Positions 1 through 28,639 of a stretch of DNA of 64,000 bases are shown in pieces. Made by a program: the position numbers and the translations under genes. Position 1 is the stretch's first letter. Each line of letters opens with the position of its first letter. Source of the stretch: an uncultured Propionivibrio sp. (lineage in GTDB: Bacteria; Pseudomonadota; Gammaproteobacteria; Burkholderiales; Rhodocyclaceae); contig CAZNQL010000017.1 of assembly GCA_964575415.1 (NCBI GenBank), positions 127 to 64,126 on the forward strand. The letters are read 5' to 3'. The notes under the pieces are model-generated. The model saw only the letters and a list, made by a program, of their open reading frames with translations, did not search any database and was not told the DNA's origin.

Positions 1-994
1 TCCAGGAGGCAACTTCTTCCTTGGTCAGCGTGTCGAGATTGACGCGCGTCGCTTCCTTGAGATCCGGTGTCCAGGTGACGGCCGGCCAGTCTTCGAGCTT
101 CGGCGGTTCGAGCTTGGCCGGACCGGAGCCGTCGAGGTGAAAGTGCACGTGGCGGGTGGCCGCGCAGTTCGGAATCATCGCGATCGGCAGGTTCGCGGCG
201 TGTGTCGGGTACTCGGCGATCTTGACGTCGAGTACCGTGGTCAGGCCGCCGAGGCCTTGCGCGCCGATGCCCAACGCGTTGATCTTCTCATAGAGTTCGA
301 GGCGCAGTTCCTCGGCTTTGGTTTTGGCGCCGCGCTTTTGCAGATCGAGCATGTCGAGCGGTTCCATCAGCGCTTCCTTGGCCATCAGCATGGCTTTTTC
401 GGGTGTGCCGCCGATACCGATGCCGAGGATGCCAGGCGGGCACCAGCCGGCACCCATCTGCGGCACGGTCTTGTTCACCCAGTCGACGACTTCGTCGGAG
501 GGGTTGAGCATGGCGAACTTGGCCTTGGCCTCGGAGCCGCCGCCCTTGGCCGCGCAGATGACATCGACGCTGTCACCGGGGACGAGCTCGTAATAGACGA
601 TGGCCGGGGTGTTGTCCTTGGTGTTGGTGCGCTTGCCGGCTGGATCGGCAAGCACCGAGGCGCGCAGGGGGTTGTCCGCGTCAATGTAGGCACGCTTGAC
701 GCCTTCGTTGATCATGTCTTGGATGCTCATCGTGGCGTCCGGCCATTGCACGTTCATGCCCACCTTGATGAAGACGAGGCTGATCCCGGTATCCTGGCAG
801 ATCGGGCGGTGGCCTTCGGCCGACATGCGCGAGTTGGTCAGGATCTGGGCGATGGCGTCCTTGGCGGCGGGAGACTCCTCGCGCTCGTAGGCTTCGCCCA
901 TCGCTTTGATGAAGTCGAGCGGGTGGTAGTAGCTGATGTACTGGAATGCGTCGGCAATGCTCTGGATGAGATCTTCCTGGCGAATGTTGGTCAT
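1..994 (-). CDS. fumA: Class I (Fe-S) fumarate hydratase, 3' end beyond the window
   Basis: Manual translation from ATG at 994: MTNIRQEDLIQSIADAFQYISYYHPLDF...GHRPICQDTGI, the class I fumarase N-terminus. Missing from the ORF track because it has no stop in the window. Confidence 0.9.
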   Translation of the reverse strand, partial: MTNIRQEDLIQSIADAFQYISYYHPLDFIKAMGEAYEREESPAAKDAIAQILTNSRMSAEGHRPICQDTGISLVFIKVGMNVQWPDATMSIQDMINEGVKRAYIDADNPLRASVLADPAGKRTNTKDNTPAIVYYELVPGDSVDVICAAKGGGSEAKAKFAMLNPSDEVVDWVNKTVPQMGAGWCPPGILGIGIGGTPEKAMLMAKEALMEPLDMLDLQKRGAKTKAEELRLELYEKINALGIGAQGLGGLTTVLDVKIAEYPTHAANLPIAMIPNCAATRHVHFHLDGSGPAKLEPPKLEDWPAVTWTPDLKEATRVNLDTLTKEEVASW

Positions 995-1114: not shown

Positions 1115-2050
1115 TCATTCGAGGGCGGCGGTCAATGTCGGTAGGGCATCGAACAGATCGGCGACGAGACCGTAATCGGCGACCTGGAAGATCGGGGCGT
1201 CCGGGTCCTTGTTGATGGCGACGATCACCTGGCTTTCGCGCATGCCGGCCAGGTGCTGGATGGCGCCGGAAAGGCCGACGGCGATGTAGAGCTCAGGGGC
1301 GACGACCTTGCCCGTCTGCCCGACCTGCCAGTCGTTGGGCGCGTAGCCGGCGTCGACGGCGGCGCGCGTCGCGCCCAGCGCCGCGCCCAGTTTATCGGCC
1401 AAAGGTTCGAGCAGCGCGTAGAAATTCTCGCGGCTACCGAGTCCGCGTCCGCCGGCGATGACGGTGCGGGCGTTTCCGAGTTCGTGGCGTGCCGAGGTCG
1501 TCAGTTCGCGTTTGAGTACGCGGCTCTTGCCGCAGTCGGCGGCGGCAGGCAATTTTTCGATGGCGGCCGGTGATTCGCTTTCACCGGCATCCGGAAAAGC
1601 CGTGGCGCGGACCGTGACGACCTTGATGACGTCGGCCGATTGCACCGTCGCCAGCACGTTGCCGGCGTAGATCTGGTGCACGAAGGTGTCGGGTGCGACG
1701 ACGTCGACGATCTCGGAAATTTGCGCCACGTCGAGCCGCGCCGCCACGCGCGGCATGAAACTCTTGCCGCTGCTGCTGGAGGCAGCGAGCACATGGCTGT
1801 AGCTGCTGACGATACCCGTGACCAGAGCCGTCAGATTTTCCGGCGAGGCGTCGGCGTAGTGCGCGGCGTCGACGAACAGAACCTTGGCGACGCCGTCGAT
1901 GCGTGCGGCGGCCTCGGCGACCGGCGCGCAATCGTTCCCGGCGACGAGCAGGTGGATGTCGCCGCCGATTCGGCGCGCCGCGCTGACCGCATGGCGCGTC
2001 GCTGGTTTGAGCGAAGCGTTGTCGTGTTCGGCAATGACGAGGAGGGTCAT
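1115..2050 (-). CDS. etfA: Electron transfer flavoprotein alpha subunit
   Basis: [33 protein letters not shown]-binding signature. Confidence 0.95.
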
Positions 2051-2805
2051 CGGATCACCTTAGCCTGGTTCTTGAGTCGATCGACCAGTTCGGCGACGTC
2101 GGCGACCCGGATCCCGGGCGGACGCGGCGGCGGCTCGACGACTTTCAGGGTTTTCAGGCGCGGCGCGACATCGACGCCGAGCGCCAGCGGCGTCAACGTG
2201 TCGAGCGGCTTCTTGCGCGCCTTCATGATGTTCGGCAGCGTCGCGTAACGCGGCTGGTTGAGGCGCAGGTCGGCGGTGATGACGGCCGGCAGCGCGATGT
2301 CGACGGTTTCCAGCCCGCCGTCGATTTCGCGCAGGACTGTCGTCCGGTTTCCGTCGGCCGTGATCGTGATTCCCGAAGCGCAAGTCGCCTGCGGCCAGTC
2401 GAGCAACACGGCCAGCATCTGGCCGGTCTGGTGAGCGTCGTCGTCGATGGCCTGTTTGCCGCAGAGGACGAGTTGCGGTTGTTCGCGTTCGCAGATGGCC
2501 TTCAACAGTTTGGCTACGGCCAGCGGCTGCAATTCGACATCGGTTTCGATCAATAACCCTCGGTCGGCGCCGAGGGCCAACGCCGTGCGCAAGGTTTCCT
2601 GGCAAGTCGCCGGCCCCGCCGAGACGGCAAAGACTTCGGTAGCGATGCCGCCTTCCTTGAGGCGCACCGCCTCCTCGACGGCGATTTCGTCGAAGGGGTT
2701 CATCGCCATGCGGGCGTGGGCAATGTCCACGCCGCTGCCGTCCGTTTTCGGGCGGACCTTGATGTTGTAATCGACCGCCCGTTTGACGGCGACGAGGATT
2801 TTCAA
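2047..2805 (-). CDS. etfB: Electron transfer flavoprotein beta subunit
   Basis: KILVAVKR..D, MNPFDEIAVEEA, GKQAIDDD motifs; TTG start. Confidence 0.95.
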   Translation of the reverse strand: MKILVAVKRAVDYNIKVRPKTDGSGVDIAHARMAMNPFDEIAVEEAVRLKEGGIATEVFAVSAGPATCQETLRTALALGADRGLLIETDVELQPLAVAKLLKAICEREQPQLVLCGKQAIDDDAHQTGQMLAVLLDWPQATCASGITITADGNRTTVLREIDGGLETVDIALPAVITADLRLNQPRYATLPNIMKARKKPLDTLTPLALGVDVAPRLKTLKVVEPPPRPPGIRVADVAELVDRLKNQAKVIR

Positions 2806-2814
2806 AGCATGCTC

Positions 2815-4461
2815 CTACATGTTCGGGTAGTTCGGACCGTCGCCGCCTTGCGGGGGGGTCCATACGATGTTCTGCGTCGGGTCCTTGATGTCGCAGGCTT
2901 TGCAGTGTACGCAATTTTGCGCGTTGATTTGCAGGCGCGGATTCTCGTCGGCGGCGTCGCGCAGGATTTCATAGACACCCGCCGGACAGTAGCGCTGCTC
3001 CGGAGCGTCGAAGTGCGCCAGATTGACGCGGAGCGGAACGCTCGCGTCTTTGAGCGTGAGATGACAGGGCTGGTTTTCTTCGTGGCGGGTGTGGGAGAGA
3101 TCGACCGACGACATGCGGTCGAAGCTGATCTGGCCGTCCGGTTTTGGGTAGGCGATTGGCCGGCAATCGGCGGTCTTCAGCAGCCGGGTATGGTCGGCGG
3201 CCCGGTGGCGCAGCGTCCACGGCGCCTTGCCCCGAAAGACGTGCTGATCGAGGGCGAACATTACGCTGCCGAGGTACAGCCCCTTGTTCATCCAGGGTTT
3301 GAAGTTGCGTCCTCGCTGCAATTCGTCGAAGAGCGGACTGGCGCAGAAGGCGCGCGGGTAGGCGAGCAGCTTGTCGTGGCTACGGCCGGCGGTCAGCGCT
3401 TCGAAGCAGGCGTCCGCCGCCAGCCTGCCCGAGTCGATGGCGCCATGTGCCCCCTTGAGGCGTGCGGCATTGAGAAAGCCGGCGTCGTCGCCGATCAGCG
3501 CGCCGCCCGGAAAAACCAGCCTGGGCAAAGACTGGACGCCGCCGGCGCTGAGCGTGCGCGCGCCGTAGGCGATGCGGCGACCGCCCTCGAGGGTTTTTCG
3601 CAGGGCCGGATGCGTTTTGTAGCGCTGGAATTCCTCGAACGTTGAAAGATAGGGGTTGCGATAGCCGAGGCCGGTGACGAGTCCGACCGCCACTTGGTTG
3701 TCCCGTAGGTGGTACAAGAAGCCGCCGCCGTAGGTCTGCGCGTCGAGCGGCCAGCCGACGCTGTGGATGACGCGTCCGGCTTGATGTTTTTCCGGAGGGA
3801 TTTCCCACAGTTCCTTGATGCCGAGCGCGTAGGTCTGCGGATCGGCGTGTTCGCGCAGGCGGAACCGGTCTTCGAGTTGCCGGCCGAGATGGCCGCGGCT
3901 GCCTTCGGCGAAAAGCGTGTAGCGCGCGAGCAGCGCCATGCCCGGCTGGTAGTTCGGACCGTGCGAACCGTTCTTGAGCACGCCAAGGTCGCCGGTGGCG
4001 ATGCCGACGACCGCGCCGTCTTCGTCGTAAAGAATCTCGCTGCCGGCGAATCCGGGGTAGATTTCGACGCCTAGCGTTTCTGCCTGCCGGCCAAGCCAGC
4101 GGCACAGTTCGGCGAGGCTGACGACGTGATTGCCCCGGTTGAGAAAGCAGTCCGGCAGCAGCCAGTCTGGAACCGCGATGCTGCCGCTTTCGTCGAGCAA
4201 CAGGAAACGGTCTTCGACGACCGGCGTATCGACGGGCGCGCCTTGCGCTTGCCAGTCCGGGAGCAGACGGTTCAGCGCGGACGGGTCGAGTATGGCCCCG
4301 GAGAGGATGTGACCGCCGATTTCCGCCGCTTTTTCGATCAGGCAGACATTGACGTCGGCACTCTTTTCGCCGGCGAGCTGCTTGAGACGGATCGCAGCGG
4401 CCAGCCCGGCCGGGCCGCCGCCGACGATCACCACATCGAATTCTATCGATTCTCTTTGCAT
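2815..4461 (-). CDS. etfD: ETF-ubiquinone oxidoreductase (single chain, FAD plus C-terminal Fe-S)
   Basis: DVVIVGGGPAGL, GHILSGA, YCPAGVYE, NCVHCKACDIKDP. Confidence 0.93.
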   Translation of the reverse strand: MQRESIEFDVVIVGGGPAGLAAAIRLKQLAGEKSADVNVCLIEKAAEIGGHILSGAILDPSALNRLLPDWQAQGAPVDTPVVEDRFLLLDESGSIAVPDWLLPDCFLNRGNHVVSLAELCRWLGRQAETLGVEIYPGFAGSEILYDEDGAVVGIATGDLGVLKNGSHGPNYQPGMALLARYTLFAEGSRGHLGRQLEDRFRLREHADPQTYALGIKELWEIPPEKHQAGRVIHSVGWPLDAQTYGGGFLYHLRDNQVAVGLVTGLGYRNPYLSTFEEFQRYKTHPALRKTLEGGRRIAYGARTLSAGGVQSLPRLVFPGGALIGDDAGFLNAARLKGAHGAIDSGRLAADACFEALTAGRSHDKLLAYPRAFCASPLFDELQRGRNFKPWMNKGLYLGSVMFALDQHVFRGKAPWTLRHRAADHTRLLKTADCRPIAYPKPDGQISFDRMSSVDLSHTRHEENQPCHLTLKDASVPLRVNLAHFDAPEQRYCPAGVYEILRDAADENPRLQINAQNCVHCKACDIKDPTQNIVWTPPQGGDGPNYPNM

Positions 4462-4577
4462 TCACCAGAGCCTTGAAAGCTTACGCGCCGGTTCGGGAAC
4501 ATCCCGGCGTCGGCGCAGTATACGGCATCGTTCGTTTGCGGTTGTACCGTTGCCGGCGAAGTTGTCGGTATTGTGTT

Positions 4578-4593
4578 TGTCGCTTTTGCGACA
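4578..4593 (+). promoter_or_regulatory. NifA upstream activator sequence
   Basis: TGT-cgcttttgcg-ACA is an exact TGT-N10-ACA, about 65 bp upstream of a -24/-12 promoter with an AT-rich stretch between. Confidence 0.8.
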
Positions 4594-4654
4594 AGGCGTC
4601 GGCTTTGTCGTATGCCTGTAATGTTCAACGCGTTGTTAATAAAAGAAAAACGGG

Positions 4655-4671
4655 CTGGCACCGGAATTGCT
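4655..4671 (+). promoter_or_regulatory. sigma54 (-24/-12) promoter of nifVWZM
   Basis: CTGGCAC-cggaa-TTGCT matches the consensus TGGCAC-N5-TTGCW. Confidence 0.88.
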
Positions 4672-4692
4672 CACATGAGGTCAGGAGGCCTT

Positions 4693-6201
4693 ATGTCACA
4701 AGCCGGACAGTCATTCATCGTCATCAACGATACGACGCTACGCGACGGCGAGCAATCGGCCGGGGTCGCTTTCACCCTCGACGAAAAGCTGGCCATCGCA
4801 CGCCATCTTGCCGCGCTGGGCGTGCCCGAACTCGAAGTCGGCATTCCGGCGATGGGCGAGGCCGAGCGCGAGAGCATCCGCGCCGTGGCCGCTCTGGGAC
4901 TGTCGTCGCGCCTGATGGTGTGGAGCCGCATGCACGAGAGCGACATCGCCGCCTGCTGCGGACTGGGGGCGCACCTGATCGACATTTCTGTGCCTTCGTC
5001 GGATCAACACCTCGCCCACAAGTTGCGCCGTGACCGCGCCTGGTTGCTGTCGCGCATCGGCTACCACATTTCGCTTGCCCTCGACGCCGGCTTCGAAGTC
5101 TGCATCGGCGCCGAGGATGCCTCGCGCGCCGATCCGGATTTCCTTGCACAAATCGCCGAAGCGGCACAGCGTGCCGGGGCGCGGCGGATTCGCTTCGCCG
5201 ATACGCTCGGCGTGCTCGATCCGTTCGCCGTCGCCGAGCGCATCGCGCGTCTGCGTGCGACAACCGACCTCGAAATCGAAATGCACGCCCACGACGACCT
5301 CGGTCTGGCGACGGCCAACACGCTGGCGGCGGTGCGTGCTGGCGCCACGCATGTCAATACCACGGTCAACGGCCTCGGCGAGCGTGCCGGCAACGCCGCG
5401 CTCGAAGAAGTCGTGCATGGATTGCACCAGTGCTACGGCATCGAAACCGGCGTCGATCTGCGCCAGTTCCCGGAAGTGTCGGCGCTGGTCGCGCAGGCGT
5501 CTGGACGGCCGGTGGCCTGGCAGAAGAGCCTCGTCGGTGAGGGGGTGTTCACGCACGAAGCCGGCATCCATGTCGACGGCCTCCTGAAACATCCCGACAA
5601 CTATCAGGGTTTCGACCCGCGCCTCGTCGGCCGCGACCACCGCGTCGTCCTCGGCAAGCATTCGGGCAAAGGCGGTGTGCAGGCCGTGTTTTCGATGCTC
5701 GGCAAGACGGTCGGCGATGAAGAGGCAGAAACGCTGGTCGGCGAAATTCGCGACTTCGTCAATCGTTGCAAGCGACCGTCGTCGCCGGAAGAGTTGTTGT
5801 TCATGCTGGCGGAGCAGCAATCGAAGGCCCGCGGCCAATTGTCCCCACTGATTTCAACCGAGAAGGAATGCACCATGAGCCTCGATGCCACCGACTTTGA
5901 GCAGGAAGTTGCCGAACTGGAATCCGCCGAGGATTTTCTCGAATATTTCAACATCGAATACGACCCAGCGGTCGTCCAGGTCAACCGGCTGCATATCCTG
6001 CAGCGTTTCCACGACTACCTGGCCCGGCGCGCTGAAACGCAGACGCTGACCTACGCCGAATACCGGACAAGCCTCGGCATGGCTTATGAGGATTTCGTCC
6101 GTTCCGATGCGGTGACCGAGAAAGTGTTCAAGGTCTTCAAACGGGCGTCGGGCATCGCAACCGTTCCGCTGTCCGCCATCGGCCGCGCGACGAGGCACTG
6201 A
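4693..6201 (+). CDS. nifV: Homocitrate synthase NifV, reading in frame into NifW
   Basis: [47 protein letters not shown]; RBS AGGAGG before ATG 4693; no stop before nifW. Confidence 0.92.
5875..6201 (+). CDS. nifW: Nitrogenase-stabilising protein NifW (own RBS and ATG inside the nifV frame)
   Basis: [35 protein letters not shown]...EKVFKVF; AGAAGGA at 5861-5867. Confidence 0.9.
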
Positions 6202-6665
6202 TGCAAACGCAATTCGATCTCGGCGATTCGGTGCGTGTCGTGCGCAATGTGCGCAACGACGGCACCTATCCCGGCGCGGCCATGGGCGATCTCCTGGTGC
6301 GTCTCGGCAGCGTCGGCACCGTTGTCGATATCGGCACCTTCCTCATGGATCAGATCATCTATACCGTGCACTTTCTCGATGACGACAAGATGGTCGGTTG
6401 CCGCGAGGAAGAAGTGATCGGCGCCGACGATCCCTGGGTGCCCAGCCTGTTCGAATCGCGCGAAAAAGTACGCGCGGGCAAGTTGCTCAAGCTCAGCGAG
6501 GATGCGCAAATACCGATCGGCGCCATCGGCGAAGTCCTGAAAGTCCTGCGCGACGAGGCCTCGGCTACCGTTCTTTACCATATGCATTTCGACTGCCTGC
6601 CGGGCCGCACGCTGGCCGTGCCCGAGTCGGCGCTTTCACCCCTGAGGGACGACCGTGCAGACTGA
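6201..6665 (+). CDS. nifZ: NifZ
   Basis: GDSVRVVRNVRNDGTYPG...GTFLMDQIIYTVHF...VGCREEE. Confidence 0.92.
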   Translation: MQTQFDLGDSVRVVRNVRNDGTYPGAAMGDLLVRLGSVGTVVDIGTFLMDQIIYTVHFLDDDKMVGCREEEVIGADDPWVPSLFESREKVRAGKLLKLSEDAQIPIGAIGEVLKVLRDEASATVLYHMHFDCLPGRTLAVPESALSPLRDDRAD

Positions 6666-6675
6666 AAGGAAAGCT

Positions 6676-7513
6676 GTGGATACCCCATCCTTATCTCCGC
6701 CTCAAGCTGGCGCAGGAGCTGTTCCGGAAAGCGCCCGACAAGCTCGAACCGGAGGAATGTAAACGCGTCGACGACGTCGTTGCGCGGCAGTTGCAGATCG
6801 AACGGCGCATCCTGTCCACGCCGGAAGCGGCGCAGGTCGTCCTGCCGTCGTCGTCGGTCGAGCAATCGCTGGGCGAGATTCGTCAGCGTTATCTGACCGA
6901 CGAGGAATTCGTCGCCGATCTCAACGTCTCCGGGCTGGACCCGGTCAGCCTCGCCGATGCGATCCGACGCGACTTGACCGTCGACGCCGTGCTCGACCGC
7001 ATCGCCAGCCGGGTTGCCGAAGTGACGGAAACCGACGTCGAAATCTTCTACCTGATGCACCGCGAACGCTTCAAGCGCCCGGAATTCCGCCGCTTCAAGC
7101 ACATTCTCGTCACCATCAACGAAAACATGGCCGGTAGCGATCGCCAGTCGGCGCGCGAAAAGATCGACGCCATCCGCGAACGGCTGCTCAAATCGCCCGG
7201 ACGCTTTGCCGAGCAGGCACTGAAACATTCCGAATGTCCGACGGCAACGAACGGCGGCGAGTTGGGCACGGTCAAGCGCGGCCAGTTGTTTCCAGAACTC
7301 GAACCGGCTGCCTTTGCGCTCGACGTTGAAGCGCTGTCGGAAGTGCTCGAATCGCCGATCGGTTTTCACCTGATGTGCTGCGAGGCCATCGAAGAAGCCC
7401 GCGAACTGCCGCTACCGGATGTGCGGGCAAAAATCCGCCAGCAATTGAGCGAAACGCGCCGCCGCTCGGTGCAGAAAACCTGGGTCGCCAGATTGTTCAA
7501 GCAGGAAGGTTGA
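6676..7513 (+). CDS. nifM: NifM parvulin-type PPIase; the likely start GTG 6676 is one base out of frame
   Basis: HPYLRLKLA, KHILVTINE, ALKHSECPTATNGGELG, VLESPIGFHL; position after nifZ. Confidence 0.85.
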
Positions 7514-7570
7514 TCAGGTTGCAGAGGCTAGCTGCGTGTAAGGTGTTTTGGCCGTCGGTCTGGGTGAGAA

Positions 7571-7641
7571 GGACAGAAAACGACCCTCAATAGCCATCCA
7601 TTGACCCAACGCCGAGCGACCGCTGCTTGACCAATGCTGCC
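7571..7641. repeat. Degenerate member of the recombinase-associated palindromic motif family
   Basis: Reverse strand reads GGCAGCATTGGTCAA...TTGGGTCAAT...GAGGGTCGTTTTCTGTCC, similar to motifs at 27426-27450 and 30972-30995. Confidence 0.5.
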
Positions 7642-7653
7642 AATAAATAACGT

Positions 7654-8265
7654 TCAGCGCGATGCAGAGGTGGCTATCTTTGCTGCTAAACCAAGTAGCA
7701 CTACTCCAACGACTCGGTCAAACCAAACCAAGCGGGATCCGAGCCAATCAAGGACGCGACGTGATGAAAACATAGCCGACACGATGCCGAACCAGAGGAA
7801 AGATTCCCCAACTAGCAGGACCCAGAGAAGCGCCGTATCAACGGTCCCCAGCTCTGGGGTAAGAACCTGCGAGAGAATCGAGCCGAAATAGAGCATTGCT
7901 TTTGGGTTCAATAGGTTGGTCAGGAACCCTGAAACGAATGCTTTTCCGACTTGACCGCGTGATTGCATCTCCGGCAATTGCCCCTTGGAGCGCAAACACT
8001 GAATGCCCAGCCACGCCAGATACATTGCACCAGTCACGGACAATAAAGTGGAAAGCCCTGGCAATGCCGCCAAGACCAAAGACAGTCCGAACGCGCAGAC
8101 CAATATATAGACTCCGATTGCGGCTGCAACACCTGCTGCTGCCCAGAGGCCAGTCTGGCGACCGGATACGATCGAGAGGCGAGTGACAATTGCGAAGTCA
8201 GGTCCGGGTGAAATCAAGGCGACTGCATGGATAGCCAGCACAAGGGTTAGAGCTTCCCAAGACAT
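7654..8265 (-). CDS. LysE/RhtB-family amino-acid exporter
   Basis: ISPGPDFAIV and GFLTNLLNPKAMLYF motifs; hydrophobic. Confidence 0.9.
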   Translation of the reverse strand: MSWEALTLVLAIHAVALISPGPDFAIVTRLSIVSGRQTGLWAAAGVAAAIGVYILVCAFGLSLVLAALPGLSTLLSVTGAMYLAWLGIQCLRSKGQLPEMQSRGQVGKAFVSGFLTNLLNPKAMLYFGSILSQVLTPELGTVDTALLWVLLVGESFLWFGIVSAMFSSRRVLDWLGSRLVWFDRVVGVVLLGLAAKIATSASR

Positions 8266-8398
8266 GTTGATTCTCTGAATAACAAGGAGCGGGTATTTTG
8301 AACGCTTCGGGGTGAAATAGGCAAAACAGTCATCGAAGCACGTGGCATTCTGTGGTCAGCATCAGTCAAAAACCTGCCTTTGCTACACGCTAGCAAAG

Positions 8399-8418
8399 AT
8401 GGCTGGAATTGGCCTATT
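8399..8418. repeat. 20-bp motif shared with the recombinase island
   Basis: ATGGCTGGAATTGGCCTATT is 19/20 identical to the reverse complement of 29333-29352. Confidence 0.7.
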
Positions 8419-8500
8419 TCACGACTGTATCGCTACCGGCGCAGAAATGCCATAACAATAACAAGGCGCGCAACGGTTTGCTGGCCGTGCGTCTTTTGAA

Positions 8501-9133
8501 TTAAGCCGGACTACGGGGTACGCTTACTATTTCGCCGCGTGCCTGACGGATGACGCTGATCGACGCCGAAATGGCCAGTGACGCAATGATGACGGCAACA
8601 AGCAGATCGGGCCACGCCGATGCGGTGCCGAAGACACCGATTGCTGCGAGGGCGATCGCGACGTTGACGATGGCGTCGTTGCGGCTGCACAGCCAGACGG
8701 AACGCATGTTGGCGTCGCCAGCGCGGAAGGCGTAAAGCATCAGCGCCACGCTGAGGTCGGCGACCAGCGCCACGAGGGCGATGGAGCCCATGGTGAAGGG
8801 TTCCGGCGGCACGCCGGAGAGTGAAGCCCAGCCGGTTTTGACCAGTACGAAGCCGCCGTAGAGGCCCATGGTCCAGCCTTTGACCAGCGCGGCGCGGGCA
8901 CGCCACAAGAGTCCTCTGGAAAGGACGGCCAGGGAGAGGCCGTAGTTGGCCGCGTCGCCAGCGAAATCGACGGCGTCAGCGAGCAGGGATACCGAGCCCG
9001 ATTTCAGGCCGCCGACGATTTCCACCGCGAACATCAGGGTGTTGATGACCAAGGCGACCCAGAGCGCCTTGCGAAAGCGTGGGTCGATTGCACTCTTGGC
9101 GGAAGAACAGCTTCCTGAACAGCAAGCGGACAT
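8501..9133 (-). CDS. Cation diffusion facilitator (CzcD-like, short) with Cys-rich N-terminus
   Basis: MSACCSGSC; SLLADAVDFAGDAANY; MRSVWLCSRNDAI. Confidence 0.88.
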   Translation of the reverse strand: MSACCSGSCSSAKSAIDPRFRKALWVALVINTLMFAVEIVGGLKSGSVSLLADAVDFAGDAANYGLSLAVLSRGLLWRARAALVKGWTMGLYGGFVLVKTGWASLSGVPPEPFTMGSIALVALVADLSVALMLYAFRAGDANMRSVWLCSRNDAIVNVAIALAAIGVFGTASAWPDLLVAVIIASLAISASISVIRQARGEIVSVPRSPA

Positions 9134-9159
9134 GGCATTTCTCCGTATTTGATAATTGC

Positions 9160-9190
9160 ATTGAAAACCCTGGAGCGACTCCAGTGTCAA
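9160..9190 (-). promoter_or_regulatory. MerR-type (CadR/PbrR) operator-promoter of the CDF gene
   Basis: Minus strand: TTGACA, 19-bp spacer containing the dyad CTGGAG-TCG-CTCCAG, then TTCAAT. The 19-bp spacing is the MerR hallmark. Confidence 0.85.
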
Positions 9191-9221
9191 CGCTCATAAT
9201 GTATGGCGAAAAGGAGTGGGT

Positions 9222-9614
9222 ATGCGTATTGGCGAATTGGCGCGGAAAACCGGACTCGGTATCGATACTATCCGTTACTACGAAAAATCCGGATTGCTCA
9301 CCGCACCGCCGAGACGTGGCAACGGGTACAGGGAGTATGGAGGCGATCATCTCGAACGATTGGCCTTCATCCGTCATTGCCGGGCGCTAGATATGCCGCT
9401 GGCCGATGTGCGGCGTTTGATCGATTTTCTGACCTGTCCCGAGGCGGATTGCGGCGACATCAATCGATTGATCGATAGTCAGTTGGCCTGTGTCAGAAAG
9501 AGGCTCGATAGTTTGCGGGCCCTGGAAAAGCAACTCATGGCGCTACGCGCTCAGTGCGGTGAAAATTCGGTCGCACGTAAGTGCGGCATCCTGCGCGAGC
9601 TGACTTCGCCCTGA
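9222..9614 (+). CDS. MerR-family Cd(II)/Pb(II)-responsive regulator
   Basis: MRIGELA..TIRYYEK.GLL; RHCRALDM; Cys at C..IN, QC and CGIL positions. Confidence 0.9.
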   Translation: MRIGELARKTGLGIDTIRYYEKSGLLTAPPRRGNGYREYGGDHLERLAFIRHCRALDMPLADVRRLIDFLTCPEADCGDINRLIDSQLACVRKRLDSLRALEKQLMALRAQCGENSVARKCGILRELTSP

Positions 9615-10227
9615 GTATTGGGCAAGGAACAGAAAATTAGGTCCGAAATCCGCACCGGGCGTCCATCCGGAATTGGCTGTTGCTGATTTCTGGTTGCCAT
9701 CCCATAAATGGATGAATGTTTTTTGAATCGGTCGAGTTCTGTCTGAAAGGGAGAGATATTGGCCAAGCGCAGGACCATGTTGCTCTGGCGCAGTGCCTTG
9801 ACCTTCATGTTTCGGGAACTTCATTCATTCCTGTTCCGCACTCGAACTCTCATTGCGGACACTTTCATCAATCTCGTACTACATTTCTCCTGACCGCGCA
9901 CAGGGAATCTTACGGTCGATCGATTTAACCGACGCTTATGGCAATGAGAAGCCTTTGTGCGCTTCCTGCATTATCCGTTCAGTGCGCTCTTTGGTTCCCT
10001 GTGAATGCTTATTTGACTCGTTCCTGGCAGCATTCTCTCAGGTCGTGGCGCACCCCGGATTTTTAGGGTGATTCGGGGTTAAGTTCTTGTTGGCATTAAT
10101 AAAATAGAGGTCTATAGTAGTAACAAGGATGAGGGAACGAGTAGGTATGTAAGAGTTGGTATTGATGTGGAAAGAGGAGGATATTTCTGCGCTAAGACTT
10201 GGTATTTAAGCGTAGGAGGTATTTGGA

Positions 10228-11118
10228 ATGAGCCAAAAGTTATCAGACAGTAAGACGAGCGTGGTGAGTAGTGAGCTCGTGCCGTTTATAGACCGACGAA
10301 GCGGGATTGATAGGCGTCATGCCGCTGATGCGGCGGCGGGTGGCGTTTCGCCGTGGGCAGATAGAAGAAAGGGTGACCGGCGGAAATCCACGTTGGGAGC
10401 GGCGATTTTATGTGTCTCGGCACTTTTTGTTTCAGATTTGGCAGTCAGTCCAGCTAGGGCGACCGAGAGAGTGAGTATTCCCGCTACGGAGGCTTTTACA
10501 TCTGACAACGTGGTGTTGCGGGGCGATATTAGCAAGCCTGAAGGGGATGGTCCTTTCCCGGCGGTGGTGTTAATGCATGGGTGCGGTGGGTGGCAGCCAG
10601 CCGTTCGTTATGCCATGAAGGCATATGCAGACTACTTGGTGAGGCACGGTTTCGTTGTCCTTGATCTCGATAGTTTTGGTCCGAGACATCTAGGGGGGGG
10701 TAAAGTGTGCGAAAGTCTCGGGAAATTGCGGGATGCCCGGGATTACCGTACGTATGATGCCTATGATGCTTTGAGGTATTTGCGGACGCAGAAATTCGTA
10801 GATGCGGCGAACGTATTCCTGATGGGGCAGAGTAATGGCGGAAGTGTCGCTATTAACGTCGCTAAGGGGGATGTGTCACAGAAAGTAAAAGAGAAGGATG
10901 GCGGTTTCCGTGCTGTCGCGGCTTATTATCCGTGGTGTGGTACGTTTGGCAGTCGAAAGATCGAACTGGAGTCGCCGTTGATCGTTTTTGCCGGTGGACA
11001 GGATGACTGGACGCCTGCGAGTGAGTGCAATGGGGTTAAGTCAACAGGGGCAGAGCTGACGGTTAAGACCTACCCGCAAGCCGCTCACTCCTTTGATCTG
11101 AAATACCGTGGGTTCTGA
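10228..11118 (+). CDS. Dienelactone hydrolase-family alpha/beta hydrolase, C-terminus truncated by an apparent frameshift (possible pseudogene)
   Basis: PAVVLMHGCGG, GQSNGG nucleophile elbow, DDWTP, AAHSFD; residual C-terminal helix-like text (LLAKNESKAR, LFLKHF) in other frames to about 11213. Confidence 0.75.
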   Translation: MSQKLSDSKTSVVSSELVPFIDRRSGIDRRHAADAAAGGVSPWADRRKGDRRKSTLGAAILCVSALFVSDLAVSPARATERVSIPATEAFTSDNVVLRGDISKPEGDGPFPAVVLMHGCGGWQPAVRYAMKAYADYLVRHGFVVLDLDSFGPRHLGGGKVCESLGKLRDARDYRTYDAYDALRYLRTQKFVDAANVFLMGQSNGGSVAINVAKGDVSQKVKEKDGGFRAVAAYYPWCGTFGSRKIELESPLIVFAGGQDDWTPASECNGVKSTGAELTVKTYPQAAHSFDLKYRGF

Positions 11119-11405
11119 CGTGAATACGAGTCCGATGCTTCTTGCGAAGAACGAAAGCAAAGCACGTACGGAATCTCGCTAGAGCGGCTTTATTCCTCAA
11201 ACATTTTGCATGACCGTTATCAGCGATAGCTGATAACGTGCCATAATTGACAGGCATATTCCCTTGTTCGCCTTTTTTTTGTAGTTTTGGCTGAGGCTCA
11301 TGCTTGCTTGGCTACGATTGTCTGTTTTAACGATTTTTCGGTCTGTGTCGAAACACGTTTGTGTTTGTTGTACACGCCGGCTTCTGCTAGAATGCGCCCT
11401 CTTCT

Positions 11406-11496
<91 letters not shown>

Positions 11497-11503
11497 GATA
11501 CTT

Positions 11504-11533
11504 TGCAAAACGGCCCTCTCGGGCCGTTTTGCA
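11504..11533 (+). terminator. Intrinsic terminator after the tRNA
   Basis: Perfect 13-bp stem TGCAAAACGGCCC-tctc-GGGCCGTTTTGCA. Confidence 0.85.
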
Positions 11534-11615
11534 TTTCAGGCTTGCCAATATCGCAAATTCAGCGCCGAGCAATGGCTTATGGTTAGAGTACGGTTAATTT
11601 CAATTAGGTGTCATT

Positions 11616-11697
11616 TGTAATCTTTATGTAATCAGGGTGTAACAAGGCTTGGGTAAATTTGAATTGCTTAGTGCCTGAAATTGGCCGATTAATCGCG
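11616..11697 (+). promoter_or_regulatory. Three TGTAA(T/C) direct repeats at 11-bp period, followed by a sigma54-like element
   Basis: TGTAAT 11616, TGTAAT 11627, TGTAAC 11638; TGGC-cgattaat-CGC (GG-N10-GC) at 11682-11696. Confidence 0.5.
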
Positions 11698-11758
11698 ATC
11701 CATGCATGTCCCGGATTGGCTGTTGGGAGTTCAAGGTGACGCTCAAGGGGAGTTCCTG

Positions 11759-11986
11759 ATGTCTGCAAAACCAGCAGAAGAGTACGTGGCAAAGGCTTTA
11801 CGTTTGACGAGCGAAGAGGTCGATATTTTGTTGGCGAGAATGCAAGTACATTATTCGCGCCGGATGCAGGATGCGCGACTCTCCAAGATCGAAGCGCTGG
11901 CTTTGCAACTTCAATTCGAGGATGAAGATTTGTTGTCCTGGCGTACTGTGATGGCGGAACTGCGAGCCAAGAGCGACGCACTGTGA
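11759..11986 (+). CDS. Small helical hypothetical protein (75 aa)
   Basis: RBS AAGGGGAG before ATG 11759; plausible amphipathic sequence. Confidence 0.6.
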   Translation: MSAKPAEEYVAKALRLTSEEVDILLARMQVHYSRRMQDARLSKIEALALQLQFEDEDLLSWRTVMAELRAKSDAL

Positions 11987-12213
11987 GCCGTTTCTCTCAC
12001 ATCTATTAATTGTCTCGTATTTCTTCGATGCCAACGCTATAGAGGAGGCGCGGGCCTGTACTGAATTTTGTGTAAACGGACTATTGGCTGGAAACTGCCG
12101 GGTTCTCTTGGGGCCTAATATCGCTTCTTGGCTTCCGGTCGGGGGCAGGCGATGGCGACCTTGATGTAAGCGGCTGCTATACTTCCCGCCGTTCGCGGCT
12201 AAGGAAAACAGAC

Positions 12214-12852
12214 ATGGCAATGAAATACCAGATTATCCCGGTTACTCCGTTCGAGCAGAACTGTACCCTTTTGTGGTGTGATGAGACGTTGCGCGCAGCG
12301 GTGGTCGATCCGGGCGGCGATGTTTCCCGCATCCTCAATGCGGTGAAGAAGGTTGGCGTCGAATTGGAGAAAATCCTCGTGACGCACGGCCATATCGACC
12401 ATGCTGGGGGTGTTGCCGAGCTTTCGGATCAACTCTCGCTACCGGTCGAAGGGCCGCAGCGCGAGGATCAGTTCTGGATCGATGGGATGCCGAAACAAAG
12501 TGTGATGTACGGTTTCCCGAATGTGCGCAGCTTTACGCCGGATCGCTGGCTGGAGCAGGGCGATTACGTGAATTTCGGCAATGTCGAGCTCGAGGTCCTG
12601 CATTGTCCGGGGCATACGCCCGGACATGTCGTGTTTTTTAATCGGACGGCGCGGCTGGCGCTCGTCGGGGACGTTCTGTTCAAGGGGTCGATCGGCCGGA
12701 CCGATTTTCCGAAGGGCGATTTCGATACCTTGATATCTTCGATCCGCAATCGTCTCTGGCCTCTGGGCGACGATGTGGCGTTCATTTCAGGCCACGGGCC
12801 GATGTCGACTTTCGGGGCCGAGCGGCGCAGCAATCCCTTCTGTGGCGATTGA
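12214..12852 (+). CDS. MBL-fold metallo-hydrolase (YcbL/GloC-like)
   Basis: THGHIDH, PGHTPGH, GDVLF.GSIGRTD, GHG. Confidence 0.92.
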   Translation: MAMKYQIIPVTPFEQNCTLLWCDETLRAAVVDPGGDVSRILNAVKKVGVELEKILVTHGHIDHAGGVAELSDQLSLPVEGPQREDQFWIDGMPKQSVMYGFPNVRSFTPDRWLEQGDYVNFGNVELEVLHCPGHTPGHVVFFNRTARLALVGDVLFKGSIGRTDFPKGDFDTLISSIRNRLWPLGDDVAFISGHGPMSTFGAERRSNPFCGD

Positions 12853-13234
12853 TTCTGCCGCCCCGAGAACCTATCAGTTGCTGATCGAAGTGACCGGGCC
12901 ACTTCGCTTGCGCGTCGGGCGTCTCGGGGCCTTTGATTTTCCTGCCGGGTTGTACCTTTATACAGGCAGCGCGTTACGCAATTTCGAGGCGAGAGTTCGT
13001 CGTCATCTTGCAATAAGCAAGAAATTGCACTGGCACATCGATTATCTCCTCTCTGCGCCGGGGGTCAGGGTGGTTGACGTGCTGCGACATAACGAGGCTG
13101 AATGCGACGTGAATCGGCGAGTCGATGGCGAGGTCGTGGTGCCTGGTTTCGGTGCAAGCGATTGCCGCGCCGGCTGTGGTAGTCACCTGAAACGAATTTC
13201 TTGCAGGGACGGCGGGACGCGGAAAGCGTCTTGA
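12842..13234 (+). CDS. DUF123 / GIY-YIG (Uri) superfamily protein
   Basis: G.YLYTGSA...RVRRH...KLHWHIDYL...EC...GFGASDC..GC.SHL. Confidence 0.8.
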   Translation: MAIDSAAPRTYQLLIEVTGPLRLRVGRLGAFDFPAGLYLYTGSALRNFEARVRRHLAISKKLHWHIDYLLSAPGVRVVDVLRHNEAECDVNRRVDGEVVVPGFGASDCRAGCGSHLKRISCRDGGTRKAS

Positions 13235-13353
13235 AATGCCGCGAGCGGGATGGGTTCGTGGGCGGGTGAGGTGCCTACAGCCAATCAAGTAAAGCAAGCT
13301 ACTTGCGTCAAACAAGCCAAAATGGAAATCGCCGCAAACTCTGCGGCGATTGC

Positions 13354-14568
13354 TTAATCCTGGTGCTCGACGTTGATATGGCTGGCCCAGTAGAACGAGT
13401 CGACCTGCGCCTTGGCGAACGTTTCCGGGGAAATGTTCAGGCGGGTGAGCGTCTCTATAGCCGAGCCGAAGTTGCCTGCCTCGCCGGCCGCAATCGCTGC
13501 CAGCAACTGGCTGAGAATTCCGCCCTGACCTGGCGTGAGTAGTGCCTCGACCACATCCTCGTGCATGGGCAATTCCTTGACGATCTCTTTCATCGGCAAA
13601 TTGATCAGCACATCGAGTAGCGAAAAGAGTCCGGTCAGGAATGCATGATCCTTGAGTTCGGAATCTTTCGACGCAGGATCGATCTGGGCGGAAAGCAGTT
13701 CGAGCAGGTGACCGCGGGCCGCGGCAAGCTGCATCAAGGGATTCGGAGTATTGGCGTCGGCCAGGTTGTTGGCGTAAACCAGCAATTGCAGCCAGCGTTG
13801 CAATTGCCGGCGACCGAGAATGGCGATCGCCTGCGAGAAGTTGCTGATCTTGGTCCGGGCGCCGACGGCAACGGAATTGACGAGCCGCAAAAGGTTATAC
13901 GAAAGTTTCGGTTCTTCACGGAAGATCGCCTCGATTTCGCGCGTGTCGCCGTCGTCCTTGACCAAGTTGAGCAGCTTGAGCAGTTTGAGTCGGGCAAGAT
14001 CGGGATCTTTGCCCTGGAGTGAGTGGTGCGCCTTAAGGAACTGGCTGTCGCAGAGATCAAAGCTTTTTTCCGACAGCCAGTGGAACATGTCGTGTGATCC
14101 GACTTTTGACGCAATTTTTCCGAAACCGGCATCTTGGGCATAAGCAAGGTCAGATGCCTCGATATCCTGGTAGATGCAAGCGGCATCGAAACGCAAAAAA
14201 TCGAAGACGGCAAAGGGGACGTTCCTGATCGTTTGCGATTTGTCGATATGCACGCCGAAGCGGTAGCCTTGGCTGTGATGGAATTTGCACCGCTCAATAA
14301 CCTGTGCATCTACTAAGCAACTGGCCGGGAGGATAAAGATGACCTGACCGGCTTCGTAGGCGTCCACAACCCCTCCCTGGGTGAACCACTCGGGTTCGGC
14401 TGTAACGACCAGTTGGAGGTTTTTCGCCAGAAGGCTGGCATTGGCGCCCGAAAAACAGCGGGCAAAATCAATATGCCCGGTCTTCGGATTTTCCGATTGC
14501 CAGGCCATTGCCGCCCAGCTTTGATCAGCTGCCACCAGCGGACGAAAGAAGAAATAAGGTGAGGTCAT
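13354..14568 (-). CDS. Degenerate-EAL plus HDOD signalling protein
   Basis: EPKLSYNLLRLVNS, AIAILGRRQLQRWL, AFLTGLFSLLD. Confidence 0.85.
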   Translation of the reverse strand: MTSPYFFFRPLVAADQSWAAMAWQSENPKTGHIDFARCFSGANASLLAKNLQLVVTAEPEWFTQGGVVDAYEAGQVIFILPASCLVDAQVIERCKFHHSQGYRFGVHIDKSQTIRNVPFAVFDFLRFDAACIYQDIEASDLAYAQDAGFGKIASKVGSHDMFHWLSEKSFDLCDSQFLKAHHSLQGKDPDLARLKLLKLLNLVKDDGDTREIEAIFREEPKLSYNLLRLVNSVAVGARTKISNFSQAIAILGRRQLQRWLQLLVYANNLADANTPNPLMQLAAARGHLLELLSAQIDPASKDSELKDHAFLTGLFSLLDVLINLPMKEIVKELPMHEDVVEALLTPGQGGILSQLLAAIAAGEAGNFGSAIETLTRLNISPETFAKAQVDSFYWASHINVEHQD

Positions 14569-25775: not shown

Positions 25776-26531
25776 TCAGATTATCAACCGATTCCGGATC
25801 AAGGTTCCCGCATTCTGCAGCCTTGGAATGGTCGAGGCCAGATTGAGCCCGGTTTCCTGGAATAAGCGTTCGGTCCGGGCGATCAATTCCTCGAGCGAGA
25901 CGTCAACCGGTTCACCGCCGTTGGCGAAGGCGATGCGGTTGCCGCTATCCACCGACGGAAAGACCAGCGCGCGGTCATCAAAGGCCGCGGCGATGCGTTC
26001 CGAGCTGGCCTCGAAGCCCGCCGAGCGGCCGAGCAGATTGATCGACAGCAGTCCCTCGTCGCTCAGGCGGGAGCGGCAGGCCTGGTAGAAGGGCAAGGTG
26101 TCGAGCACGCCGGCGCGCCCTTCCTTGTCGAAACCATCGACGAGGATGTAATCGTAGGATTTTCCGTCCTTGAGCATGTATTCCGCGCCGTCGCCGATGA
26201 CGATTCGCAACCGGCGCGGGTCGTCCGGCAGCTTGAAGTGGAGCAGGGCGACGGTCTCGACCTTGGGGTCGATTTCGACGACGGTGATCCGGGTGTCGGG
26301 AAACTTGTGATAAATGAATTTCGCCAGCGAGCCGGCACCGAGGCCGATGAGCAGAGCTTCGCGCGGCCAGGGCGGATCGCGCAGCAGCAGGCCGGCCATC
26401 ATTTCGCGGGTATAGGCCAGTTCCAGATCGACCGGGCGCTGGATGCGCATCGCGCCCTGGATCCAGTCGCGGCTGAAGTGCAGATAACGGACTCCGGATT
26501 TCTCACTGATGTCGATGGCGTTGTCGGACAT
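25776..26531 (-). CDS. Spermidine synthase-like SAM methyltransferase
   Basis: IQGAMRI, LAYTREM, IGLGAGSL, VEIDP, DYILVDGF. Confidence 0.85.
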   Translation of the reverse strand: MSDNAIDISEKSGVRYLHFSRDWIQGAMRIQRPVDLELAYTREMMAGLLLRDPPWPREALLIGLGAGSLAKFIYHKFPDTRITVVEIDPKVETVALLHFKLPDDPRRLRIVIGDGAEYMLKDGKSYDYILVDGFDKEGRAGVLDTLPFYQACRSRLSDEGLLSINLLGRSAGFEASSERIAAAFDDRALVFPSVDSGNRIAFANGGEPVDVSLEELIARTERLFQETGLNLASTIPRLQNAGTLIRNRLII

Positions 26532-26637
26532 GCGGCAGGGCTGGCTTCGAATAGAGATAAAGACGAATCTTAACGCCTGCGCGCGCCATCCGGAATACTT
26601 GCGCGGCATGTCGTTGTTTCCGGTGTATCCTGCGCGG

Positions 26638-27422
26638 ATGACGAAAACGACGCCCACGACAACTTCTGCCACTCCCTTTGCCAGCCTGACGCCCGATTCC
26701 ATGCTCGATGCCCTGGAGAGCATCGGACTGACTCCCGATGGCCGTCTGCTTGCGCTCAACAGTTACGAGAACCGCGTTTATCAGGTGTTCATGGACGACG
26801 GCCGGCCGCTGATCGTCAAGTTCTACCGCGCCGGGCGCTGGTCGGACGCGGCGATCCTCGAAGAGCATGCGTTTACGACCGAGCTTGCCGAGCGGGAATT
26901 GCCGGTCGTCGCGCCACGGCCGATCAACGGGCAGACCCTGCATCATTTTGGCGACTTGCGTTTCGCCGTTTTCCCCCGGCAGGGCGGGCGCCCGAATTCG
27001 ACCGCGCCAGCAGCTTCGCCACGCTACGCCTGCATGGCGATTGCCACGCCGGCAACGTCCTCTGGCAGGAGGAGAGTGGCCCCTGCTTCGTCGACTTCGA
27101 CGATGCGCGCATGGGGCCGGCGGTGCAGGACCTGTGGATGCTGCTCTCCGGCGAACGTGCGGATCAGGTTCGCCAGTTGGCCGACGTACTCGCCGGCTAC
27201 GAGGACTTTTTCGAGTTCGACGCACGCGAACTGCATCTCGTCGAAGCCTTGCGCACGCTGCGCCTGATTCACTACGCCGGCTGGCTGGCGCGGCGCTGGG
27301 ACGATCCGGCGTTCCCCGCCGCTTTCCCCTGGTTCAACACCCAGCGCTATTGGCAGGACCGCATCCTCGAATTGCGTGAACAGATCGCCCTGATGGACGA
27401 ACCGCCGCTGTGGGTGGGGTGA
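26638..27422 (+). pseudogene. srkA: Ser/Thr kinase SrkA/RdoA (YihE) with a frameshift and an internal deletion
   Basis: LNSYENRVY, KFYR.GRWS, EEH in frame 1; LRLHGDCH.GNVL, DFDD, PAVQDLWM, RWDDPAFP in another frame; switch near 26990; central segment missing. Confidence 0.85.
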
Positions 27423-27460
27423 ACGGGCTGGATTTCGGCCAAAGCTGCCGGTAGCCTTCC

Positions 27461-27501
27461 CAATGAAAGATGGCCGGTTCTGATACCAGACCGGCCATTT
27501 G
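27461..27501. repeat. Left end site (palindrome ATGGCCGGT..ACCGGCCAT)
   Basis: Reverse complement matches 31036-31076 at 33/41; 7 of the 8 mismatches form the central spacer. Confidence 0.85.
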
Positions 27502-27882
27502 CTTTGTAAGAGAGGTTTCAATCAAGCTACGTCGACTTCTGACCCCCAAGAGCCTTCATCGTCTTGATGGCTGTGCGGCAAGTGTCCCGCATTCAGCATC
27601 CCTTGCCATTCATATGGCGCCACATTGCGGAGTTGATTGCACGACTTTCCATGTGCAGAACTAATCATTCAATCCCCATTCTTGCTGTGGGTCAAGACTA
27701 GACATTTTCGGCAGGAGGAGTAGTCTATGACCGTGCCTGATGCGTAGTAGATCGGGCCACCCAGTAACAACGCGACTGGAGGCAAGATGGTCGAATGTCC
27801 GCCGCAGTGCGTGATGATTGCGTAGTACCCAAACGGCGAATGCCGAATACCTTGGTCAATCGCTACGAGGTCAAGGATTTAC

Positions 27883-27952
27883 GAAGCCCATGTCCGACCG
27901 GCATGGGCTTCACGCATTATGCGTCCCCGAATTGAAGCGGAACGTCCGCTTC
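27883..27952. repeat. Two perfect palindromes in the ORF-free left arm of the island
   Basis: GAAGCCCATG-N9-CATGGGCTTC (27883-27911) and GAAGCGGA-ACG-TCCGCTTC (27934-27952). Confidence 0.7.
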
Positions 27953-28124
27953 ACAAGTCAGCAAACTCACACACACGACCCTGATCCGACCTTCAGAGTT
28001 TGTAAAAGCGGACAATCAACTCTGAAAAATGATCGAAAAACCGCGTAACATGAGGAAGGCATGCGCTATGACTGCCGACATCGACCCTAGCACCACCAAC
28101 TCACTCCTTTAAACGAATACATCA

Positions 28125-28445: not shown

Positions 28446-28639
28446 CTGTGCCCTGATGGACAAAGCACAGCTACACTCCGATAGTTTTTAGTTTGCTCAG
28501 GACAATGTCTGCTTTTTTTTTGGGCGAGTAAGCAAGTGTCCGCTCGTGGCCGATTGTACGCATTCGGCATCCGAAGGGAAAGCTGCCTTTGCACTTTAGG
28601 TGAAAAATCAGACTCCGATTAACAAAGAAGGAGTCTGTC

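Follow-up and report, generated by a model that had tools for sequence, protein, structure and literature searches.

The window analyzed here is a 64,000-nucleotide stretch of contig CAZNQL010000017.1 (C17), one of 41 contigs in a 2.52-Mb assembly of an uncultured Propionivibrio sp. It carries nitrogen fixation (nif) genes followed by a block of accessory genes (positions 7514 to 10227), in which nifM is succeeded by genes for a LysE/RhtB-family exporter, a short CDF-family cation efflux protein, and a MerR-type regulator (Table 1). The window also encodes a small tyrosine recombinase within a cassette bounded by inverted sites. The original prediction held that this recombinase acts in trans at satellite sites and delivered LysE, and possibly the CDF-MerR pair, next to nifM. 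Here we describe the cassette and a 24-nt sequence upstream of LysE that resembles one of its sites. The outcome for the block is modest: one credible relic site and, for the rest, ordinary accessory genes.

Table 1. Features between fumA and the tRNA-Ser gene and at the recombinase cassette, with solo sites of the same family on other contigs (given as contig:position)
Feature	Position	Strand	Remarks
fumA	2-994	-	
etfBA	1115-2805	-	
ETF-QO	2815-4461	-	
nifV-nifW, apparent fusion	4573-6201	+	
nifZ	6201-6665	+	
nifM	~6686-7513	+	
nifM-LysE spacer	7514-7653	none	No recognizable recombination site
LysE/RhtB-family exporter, 203 aa	7654-8265	-	PF01810, 3.2e-35
Inverted partner (13/14) of 8409-8422	8312-8325	none	Repeat search; 83 nt between arms
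Putative solo site, outer arm	8396-8404	-	Cassette counterpart 29347-29355 (+)
Putative solo site, spacer	8405-8410	-	Cassette counterpart 29341-29346 (+)
Putative solo site, inner arm	8411-8419	-	Cassette counterpart 29332-29340 (+)
Short CDF-family cation efflux gene	8501-9190	-	PF01545
CadR/PbrR-type MerR regulator	9216-9614	+	PF13411, PF09278
613-nt stretch, no convincing gene	9615-10227	none	
Dienelactone-hydrolase-type alpha/beta hydrolase	10228-11118	+	PF01738
tRNA-Ser(GGA)	11406-11496	+	ARAGORN, Rfam; right limit of the variable interval
Cassette left site (predicted)	28533-28556		
Mini-cassette with recombinase gene, ~795 bp	28547-29341	+	Predicted inverted core sites at both ends
Tyrosine recombinase gene, 204 aa	28640-29254	+	PF00589, sole domain match
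Cassette right site (predicted)	29332-29355		
Solo family site, no recombinase	C15:61500-64200		
Solo family site, no recombinase	C23:26559		
Solo family site, no recombinase	C16:43091-43196		
Solo family site, no recombinase	C20:14508-14553		

The recombinase consists of a catalytic domain only, and its gene is present once in the genome, so the accessory block indeed has no recombinase of its own. Simple tyrosine recombinases are described as combining a core-binding domain with a catalytic domain (PMC8138268). A full-text literature search returned no description of, or published name for, a catalytic-domain-only recombinase cassette of this kind. The protein matched the NCBIfam model NF007371 weakly (E = 0.0039; 16.7 bits against a cutoff of 222). 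A 37-nt inverted repeat (28547 to 28583 and 29305 to 29341) flanks the gene. We found at least 566 relatives of the recombinase in a genome collection and kept 80 as loci for comparison; these relatives, at 75 to 90% protein identity, come from many betaproteobacterial genera. In one of them, a named relative (L023), the cassette makes up a 797-bp contig of its own, whose two ends fall exactly at the inverted termini and whose break lies within the site spacer, which is the appearance of a collapsed multicopy unit. The cassette is a discrete unit, and its family is widespread in the Betaproteobacteria.

Across the 80 loci and the window, the terminal 15-mer was present with up to 4 mismatches in 64 of 154 end stretches, and the pattern common to the 59 nonwindow ends extended 12 nt beyond the termini. 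Each end can be written as a dyad in which two 9-nt arms, one inner and one outer, enclose a 6-nt spacer; judged from the sequence, this is the layout of a tyrosine recombinase core site. In the window cassette the left and right sites differ in their spacers, and the spacer of the right site (AATTCC) is unlike the common family spacer. The distance from a cassette end to the next gene, measured from open reading frames (ORFs), was scattered across loci and not fixed.

One sequence in the accessory block resembles the right-hand site closely. The reported match between 8399 to 8418 and the reverse complement of 29333 to 29352, at 19 of 20 positions, is real: it consists of 16 identical bases, 1 mismatch, and 3 further identical bases, and it falls exactly on the predicted right-hand core site of the cassette. 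The shared 16-mer spans the full 6-nt spacer and extends 4 nt into the inner arm on one side and 6 nt into the outer arm on the other. Completed to the full dyad, this solo site (8396 to 8419, minus strand) is separated from the downstream LysE start by 144 nt. Whether the 20-bp match is significant genome-wide has a divided answer: by length alone it is at chance level, but its position and context lift it above chance. With about 6 repeats in the window attributable to chance, we estimate a probability of about 0.01 to 0.015 that any of them would hit either core site.

For an independent measure of site likeness, we built a matrix covering positions −17 to +13 from 59 cassette ends of other genomes, with the window's own ends excluded, and scanned about 5 million positions of the genome. 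By our arithmetic, about 0.014 hits as good as that of the block site (at least 9.0 bits) would be expected in the 375 nt of spacers that flank LysE. The pattern GGCC.AAYNCC.WGCC, a loosened form of the variant site with the AATTCC spacer, matched three times in the genome, and two of these matches are the block site and the right site of the cassette. In the 80 recombinase loci there were four matches, two of them at cassette ends (L032 and L049) and two in the vicinity of cassettes (L062 and L090); there were none in 680,276 positions of LysE loci or in 422,412 positions of other relatives. Since the pattern was derived after the match had been seen, these counts show that the matched bases are a genuine variant of the site, and they do not make the match itself independent.

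The second line of evidence concerns LysE. Its assignment to the family is clear (121.8 bits against a gathering threshold of 25.6 for PF01810, covering 3 to 191 of 193 profile positions); it is RhtC-like and falls below the equivalog level (118.7 bits against a cutoff of 288). Its GC content is 0.51 to 0.56, compared with 0.60 to 0.66 in its neighbors. In a locus from another genus (L043, the same as L180), an intact cassette is followed, 143 nt past its right end, by a gene for a 78%-identical LysE. The distance from the site or cassette end to the LysE start is thus 143 nt there and 144 nt in the window, in equal orientation. Among the 264 window ORFs of at least 100 aa, matches above 56% identity in the 80 recombinase loci were limited to the recombinase and LysE. 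The LysE subfamily is itself rare: a DNA search of 53 other species of the genus found it in 8, and it was present in 11 of 400 family genomes and in 0 of 400 order genomes. Our own post hoc and rough estimate of the chance of such an adjacency at equal distance and in equal orientation, with tenfold clustering of accessory genes allowed for, is below 1e-3. LysE is probably the cargo of a single-gene module.

Two further similarities involve other LysE loci. A 13-mer, ATTCCAGCCATTC, identical to sequence in the right outer flank of the cassette, occurs 17 nt after the stop codon of a 70%-identical LysE homolog from another genus (L185:2122; L162:482 is the same sequence); it was spotted by eye, and we do not use it as support. 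Just downstream of the closest LysE of the same genus (79% identity; L106, the same as L115, about 2150 to 2265) there is a site-like sequence of 13.3 bits, followed by words that resemble the outer-flank motifs of the cassette, including GACATTCGACC.

Solo sites of this family also occur elsewhere in the genome, some of them far more recognizable. A solo end at C15:61572 scored 38 bits, both ends of the window cassette fell in the same range of 34 to 38 bits, and sequences at 29906, inside the cassette's own island, and at C23:26559 scored 19.1 and 16.2 bits, respectively. A hidden Markov model (HMM) of the outer flank, built with nhmmer from 56 ends, matched on C15, C23 (E = 0.0015 at C23:26559), C16, and C20 and at both cassette ends. 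The C15:61572 and C23:26559 sites sit at sharp drops in GC content (to 0.42 to 0.47) and bound low-GC islands of 1.7 to 2.6 kb; satellite islands that lack a recombinase therefore exist in this genome. Both are much clearer than the LysE block. We also observed that C15:63645-64072 is 92% identical to window positions 27555 to 27981, in reversed orientation.

Taken together, the position of the match and the L043 locus lead us to favor, with moderate confidence, the reading that 8396 to 8419 is a core site of the mini-recombinase system, either a relic or a secondary one, and that there is a LysE module whose upstream edge it marks. On this reading the sequence would be a solo and degenerate version of the site that bounds the cassette, with its arm/6-bp spacer/arm layout. 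The LysE module would have been joined to the 3' side of the CDF gene by site-specific recombination of the cassette system, with the recombinase supplied in trans by a resident or an earlier cassette, and the solo site would now be decaying. This joining is a step that we infer. The original proposal, that a trans-acting recombinase delivered LysE at satellite sites, is supported in part, by the identity of the match with a core site, by the existence of satellite islands, and by the L043 link; its integron and attC framing is not supported. If the relic-site reading is correct, a very small and widespread recombinase system that shuffles single genes at 24-bp sites placed a transporter gene beside a nitrogen fixation operon. 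Solo sites would then be footprints of events in genomes where the recombinase is missing from that spot, having been lost or never present, and would allow the reach, cargo, and rules of the system (spacer identity and arm variants) to be mapped.

A number of results weigh against the relic-site reading. The block site scored just 9.0 bits in the family matrix and ranked 96th in the genome, compared with 34 to 38 bits for true ends; the outer-flank HMM, which covers a hairpin and the motif that follows it, did not match it; and the full-end model detected no cassette similarity beyond about 14 nt inside it. No second site was found beside LysE, as the 7514 to 7653 spacer had no matrix match above 0 bits and no flank-HMM match. 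The L043 link is a single case among the 80 recombinase loci and was found after the fact, and the 143-nt spacer of L043 cannot be aligned with the 144-nt spacer of the window and retains no homology to it. The recombinase was absent from all 68 metagenome LysE loci and from 10 of the 11 family LysE loci. Sites of at least 9 bits were not enriched in 77 LysE and CDF-MerR loci (11 found, 12.5 expected), and upstream of 47 other LysE genes the best matrix score was at most 10.3 bits. In a sister lineage represented by a metagenome contig (L109; 96.9% identity over 6,448 nt), the order from nifV to the hydrolase gene is unchanged, so that gene order is fixed in both close lineages, and the 24-nt site has 3 substitutions and is not under constraint there. 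In the sister lineage the site is decaying rather than being maintained. Finally, long exact repeats are common in this DNA: the window has 8 maximal exact repeats of at least 16 nt, where 30 block shuffles of the window averaged 1.4, and the block has 6 exact matches of that length to the whole genome. One of the 8 is the inverted repeat of the recombinase gene, one is a palindrome, and one is the match in question; the others join mostly unrelated GC-rich coding stretches.

In a rival reading by chance, the 16-nt identity would be one of several accidental repeats in the window, and the adjacency of LysE and cassette in L043 would be an unrelated coincidence of two accessory elements in a variable region. 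We consider such a double accident unlikely, although it is a serious rival. It draws on the surplus of repeats between unrelated coding stretches and the 6 block-to-genome matches, on the low matrix rank and the silence of the flank HMM, on the loss of conservation in the sister lineage, on the lack of a general enrichment of sites at LysE loci, and on the tendency of accessory genes and mobile elements to cluster, which inflates chance adjacency. Against this, an accidental repeat would have had to hit the crossover core in either of just two sites of 24 nt, to sit upstream of the sole window gene that elsewhere has a close homolog next to a cassette, and to do so in equal orientation and within 1 nt of the same distance, the combination to which the rough joint figure given above applies.

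We think it still less likely that LysE is a live single-gene module of a pdif-like shuffling system, with 8396 to 8419 still serving as a substrate. Because the solo site has the same 6-bp spacer as the right site and lies inverted to it at a distance of 20.9 kb, the resident recombinase could in that case invert the segment from 8.4 to 29.3 kb, tRNA-Ser included, and the inversion would put the cassette directly upstream of LysE, as in the other genus. We also asked whether the present order arose through one 21-kb inversion. The two sites are inverted, and reversing such an event would restore the order found in L043, but the orientation of tRNA-Ser to fumA is already that of two other species of the genus (G011 and G006); the present order therefore looks ancestral, and the idea was rejected.

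It is very unlikely, in our view, that the sequence is part of a regulatory element of LysE, with 8312 to 8325 and 8409 to 8422 forming an operator or leader structure and the likeness to a cassette site being incidental. This inverted repeat brackets 83 nt upstream of LysE, one of its arms overlaps the inner arm of the putative site, and by our arithmetic about 0.004 such repeats would be expected by chance per 235-nt spacer; the partner arm, 8312 to 8325, is unchanged in the sister lineage. The arm at 8409 to 8422, however, is changed there at 8411 and 8419 even though LysE is 99.3% identical. No comparable repeat or motif stood upstream of the other LysE homologs inspected, there was no Rfam match, and this view does not account for the identity that spacer and outer arm share with the cassette end.

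The view of LysE as an integron-like cassette with attC-like ends, captured by an integron-type integrase acting in trans, is scarcely tenable: a tyrosine recombinase does lie near small cargo genes in a low-GC island, and a regular-expression search for attC cores in both LysE-flanking spacers found one overlapping ACCCAAC/GTTGGGT at 7604, but it found none in 8266 to 8500 and hence no core pair around LysE, the proposed ends GCTGAAC and GTTAT(TC) do not fit RYYYAAC and GTTRRRY, the 204-aa catalytic-domain-only recombinase reaches 24.7 bits against the integron-integrase model TIGR02249 (cutoff, 265), and the predicted sites are inverted pairs of the arm/6-bp spacer/arm duplex type. Nothing at the block or at the cassette is an integron.

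The short motifs that had been put forward as further links carry little. AACGTTATTTA is indeed present at the 3' end of LysE (minus strand) and at 30025 to 30035, and these are its only two copies in the 2.52-Mb assembly; by our arithmetic, the LysE flanks and the 3.8-kb island would be expected to have about 0.7 11-mers in common. Likewise, TTGGGTCAA, GAGGGTCG, and GGCAGC are present on the minus strand in 7571 to 7641 as reported, but they are words at chance level (11, 36, and 2,967 genome copies, respectively) and do not make up a recombination site. The island-edge sequences at 27426 to 27450 and 30972 to 30995, offered as models for 7571 to 7641, have just 6-mers in common with it and were rejected. 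We also rejected a second site downstream of LysE (about 7612 to 7637), which by eye agrees with the consensus at 17 of 24 positions; it scored below 0 bits and, in the sister lineage, is interrupted by an extra base behind 7629. The degenerate motifs claimed for 9710 to 9930 dissolve into a single 10-mer, GCGGACACTT, with 5 copies genome-wide.

For the CDF-MerR pair, the suggestion that the recombinase may have delivered it has no support. The matrix and the flank HMM had no match at these genes in the window, no sites were found in CDF-MerR homolog loci of other species, and a protein search placed CDF, MerR, and the hydrolase each in 0 of the 80 recombinase loci. The CDF gene probably starts at the ATG at 9136, since its relatives align from residues 9 to 20 onward. 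CDF homologs (about 73% amino acid identity) are paired with MerR in other species, on contigs other than those that carry LysE. MerR is divergent from CDF, with a palindrome, CTGGAG..CTCCAG (about 9170 to 9186), in the shared promoter region; its Pfam domains are clearly matched, and against TIGR02047 it scored 147.0 bits (cutoff, 151.45). The 613-nt stretch downstream of MerR had no Pfam match for its ORF at 9716 to 9928 and no Rfam match. Its GC content is 0.41 to 0.51, its counterpart in the sister lineage is 98% identical and differs by a 14-nt indel, and it has just one 10-mer in common with the left flank of the cassette. The hydrolase gene had no DNA match at E ≤ 1e-20 in the 53 other species of the genus. 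The CDF-MerR pair, the 613-nt spacer, and the hydrolase gene are ordinary accessory DNA with no detectable tie to the recombinase system.

We next compared the interval with close relatives and with the genus. Contigs assembled from the reads of four sequencing runs were compared with window positions 4000 to 14000. One run yielded the 97%-identical sister lineage in the same order, and three yielded short identical pieces. L109 and the 8,624-nt contig of run X2 probably represent one lineage. In this stretch no credible read contig joined across LysE or CDF-MerR; one contig skipped 2,165 nt, with a side of 21 nt and a likeness below 95. Identity between window positions 4657 to 11190 and L109 is a mosaic, with LysE at 99.3%, MerR at 100%, and the hydrolase gene at 99% and with nifZ at 94%, CDF at 95.5%, and nifM at 95.8%; 7933 to 8341 and 9081 to 9700 have no differences at all. 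The patches of this divergence (LysE and MerR against nif genes at 94 to 97%) are not aligned with the site, and this line of evidence was rejected.

The genus comparison covered 53 other species at about 70% identity and without shared synteny. nifVWZM is conserved in the genus, and the DNA after nifM was different in all four relatives examined. Wherever LysE and CDF-MerR homologs were both present, they lay on separate contigs. In two other species (G006 and G011; compared as L010 and L022), fumA adjoins tRNA-Ser(GGA), and in the window about 10 kb, comprising the etf genes, nifVWZM, and the accessory block, separates the two; the arrangement from 1 to 11.4 kb is therefore specific to this lineage. 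A degenerate pattern for the nifM C terminus matched 0 metagenome contigs.

Among known systems, the closest likeness is to the pdif (dif) modules of Acinetobacter plasmids, moved by XerC/XerD, which are described as discrete modules bounded by short arm/spacer/arm sites, with adjacent modules joined at the sites, the same module in varied contexts, and flanking sites inverted, much as here (PMC6449649, PMC7399989, PMC13141974). The present system differs from these descriptions in having its own 204-aa catalytic-domain-only recombinase in a ~795-bp cassette rather than the host Xer pair, in being chromosomal and betaproteobacterial, and in its 9-nt arms; moreover, a pdif module is bounded by two sites, whereas just one recognizable site lies beside LysE. 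The arms of Xer sites are 11 nt long. As the sites occur together with a recombinase of their own, we regard the relation to pdif as one of analogy rather than membership.

Integrons and CALINs are similar in having single, promoterless-looking cargo genes beside a tyrosine recombinase and solo sites away from it, for which action in trans has been proposed. Here, in contrast, there is no IntI signature and there are no attC cores, the sites are short duplex-type dyads instead of long folded attC hairpins, and the recombinase gene itself lies inside the site-bounded cassette. The FimB/FimE invertases resemble the system in being recombinases of about 200 aa with no separate N-terminal DNA-binding domain and in having inverted sites around a short segment. 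They differ from it in that the weak NF007371 match of the protein is far below the cutoff, the sites enclose the recombinase gene, the two spacers are unlike, and the unit is multicopy and spread across genera. The block is also reminiscent of tRNA-linked islands, being a variable stretch of lower GC content by tRNA-Ser with accessory transport and resistance genes. In such an island, however, one would look for an integrase and, at the far boundary, for a copy of the 3' end of the tRNA, and here the variable DNA is on the 5' side of the tRNA. A domain search found no integrase domain in the ORFs from 4.5 to 14.5 kb, and no such copy was found at a far boundary; the only candidate repeat (D7, 15 of 16 positions) falls within the coding sequence of LysE and is likewise 5' of the tRNA.

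The GC content of the interval is itself a mosaic (0.60 to 0.64 in the nif genes, 0.51 to 0.56 in LysE, 0.63 to 0.68 in CDF, about 0.57 in MerR, and 0.41 to 0.53 in the spacer and hydrolase gene). An inverted repeat of 19 of 20 positions, equal in length to the match with the cassette site, brackets tRNA-Ser, with one arm in the hydrolase gene (10523 to 10542) and the other 40 nt downstream of the tRNA (11535 to 11554). The frame at 4573 to 6201 is a single one of 542 aa, with homocitrate synthase (NifV) domains followed by a NifW domain, and nifV and nifW likewise form one frame in some relatives.

Finally, three observations concern the surroundings of the cassette. A small membrane protein encoded in the island (29466 to 29798) has a 42%-identical homolog in another genus (L046:725-1012), where a recombinase cassette lies at a distance of about 1.9 kb. 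An aminoglycoside phosphotransferase-like gene to the left of the island (26509 to 27422) extends over more than one frame (ORFs at 26509 to 27267, 26867 to 27379, and 27111 to 27422) and may be frameshifted. Terminator-like hairpins with the stem ATGGCCGGT..ACCGGCCAT lie at both edges of the 27.4- to 31.1-kb island (27461 to 27500 and 31036 to 31072) and also at the edge of the C15 island (C15:64141-64178); the hairpin may be the insertion target of the island or a part of the island ends.

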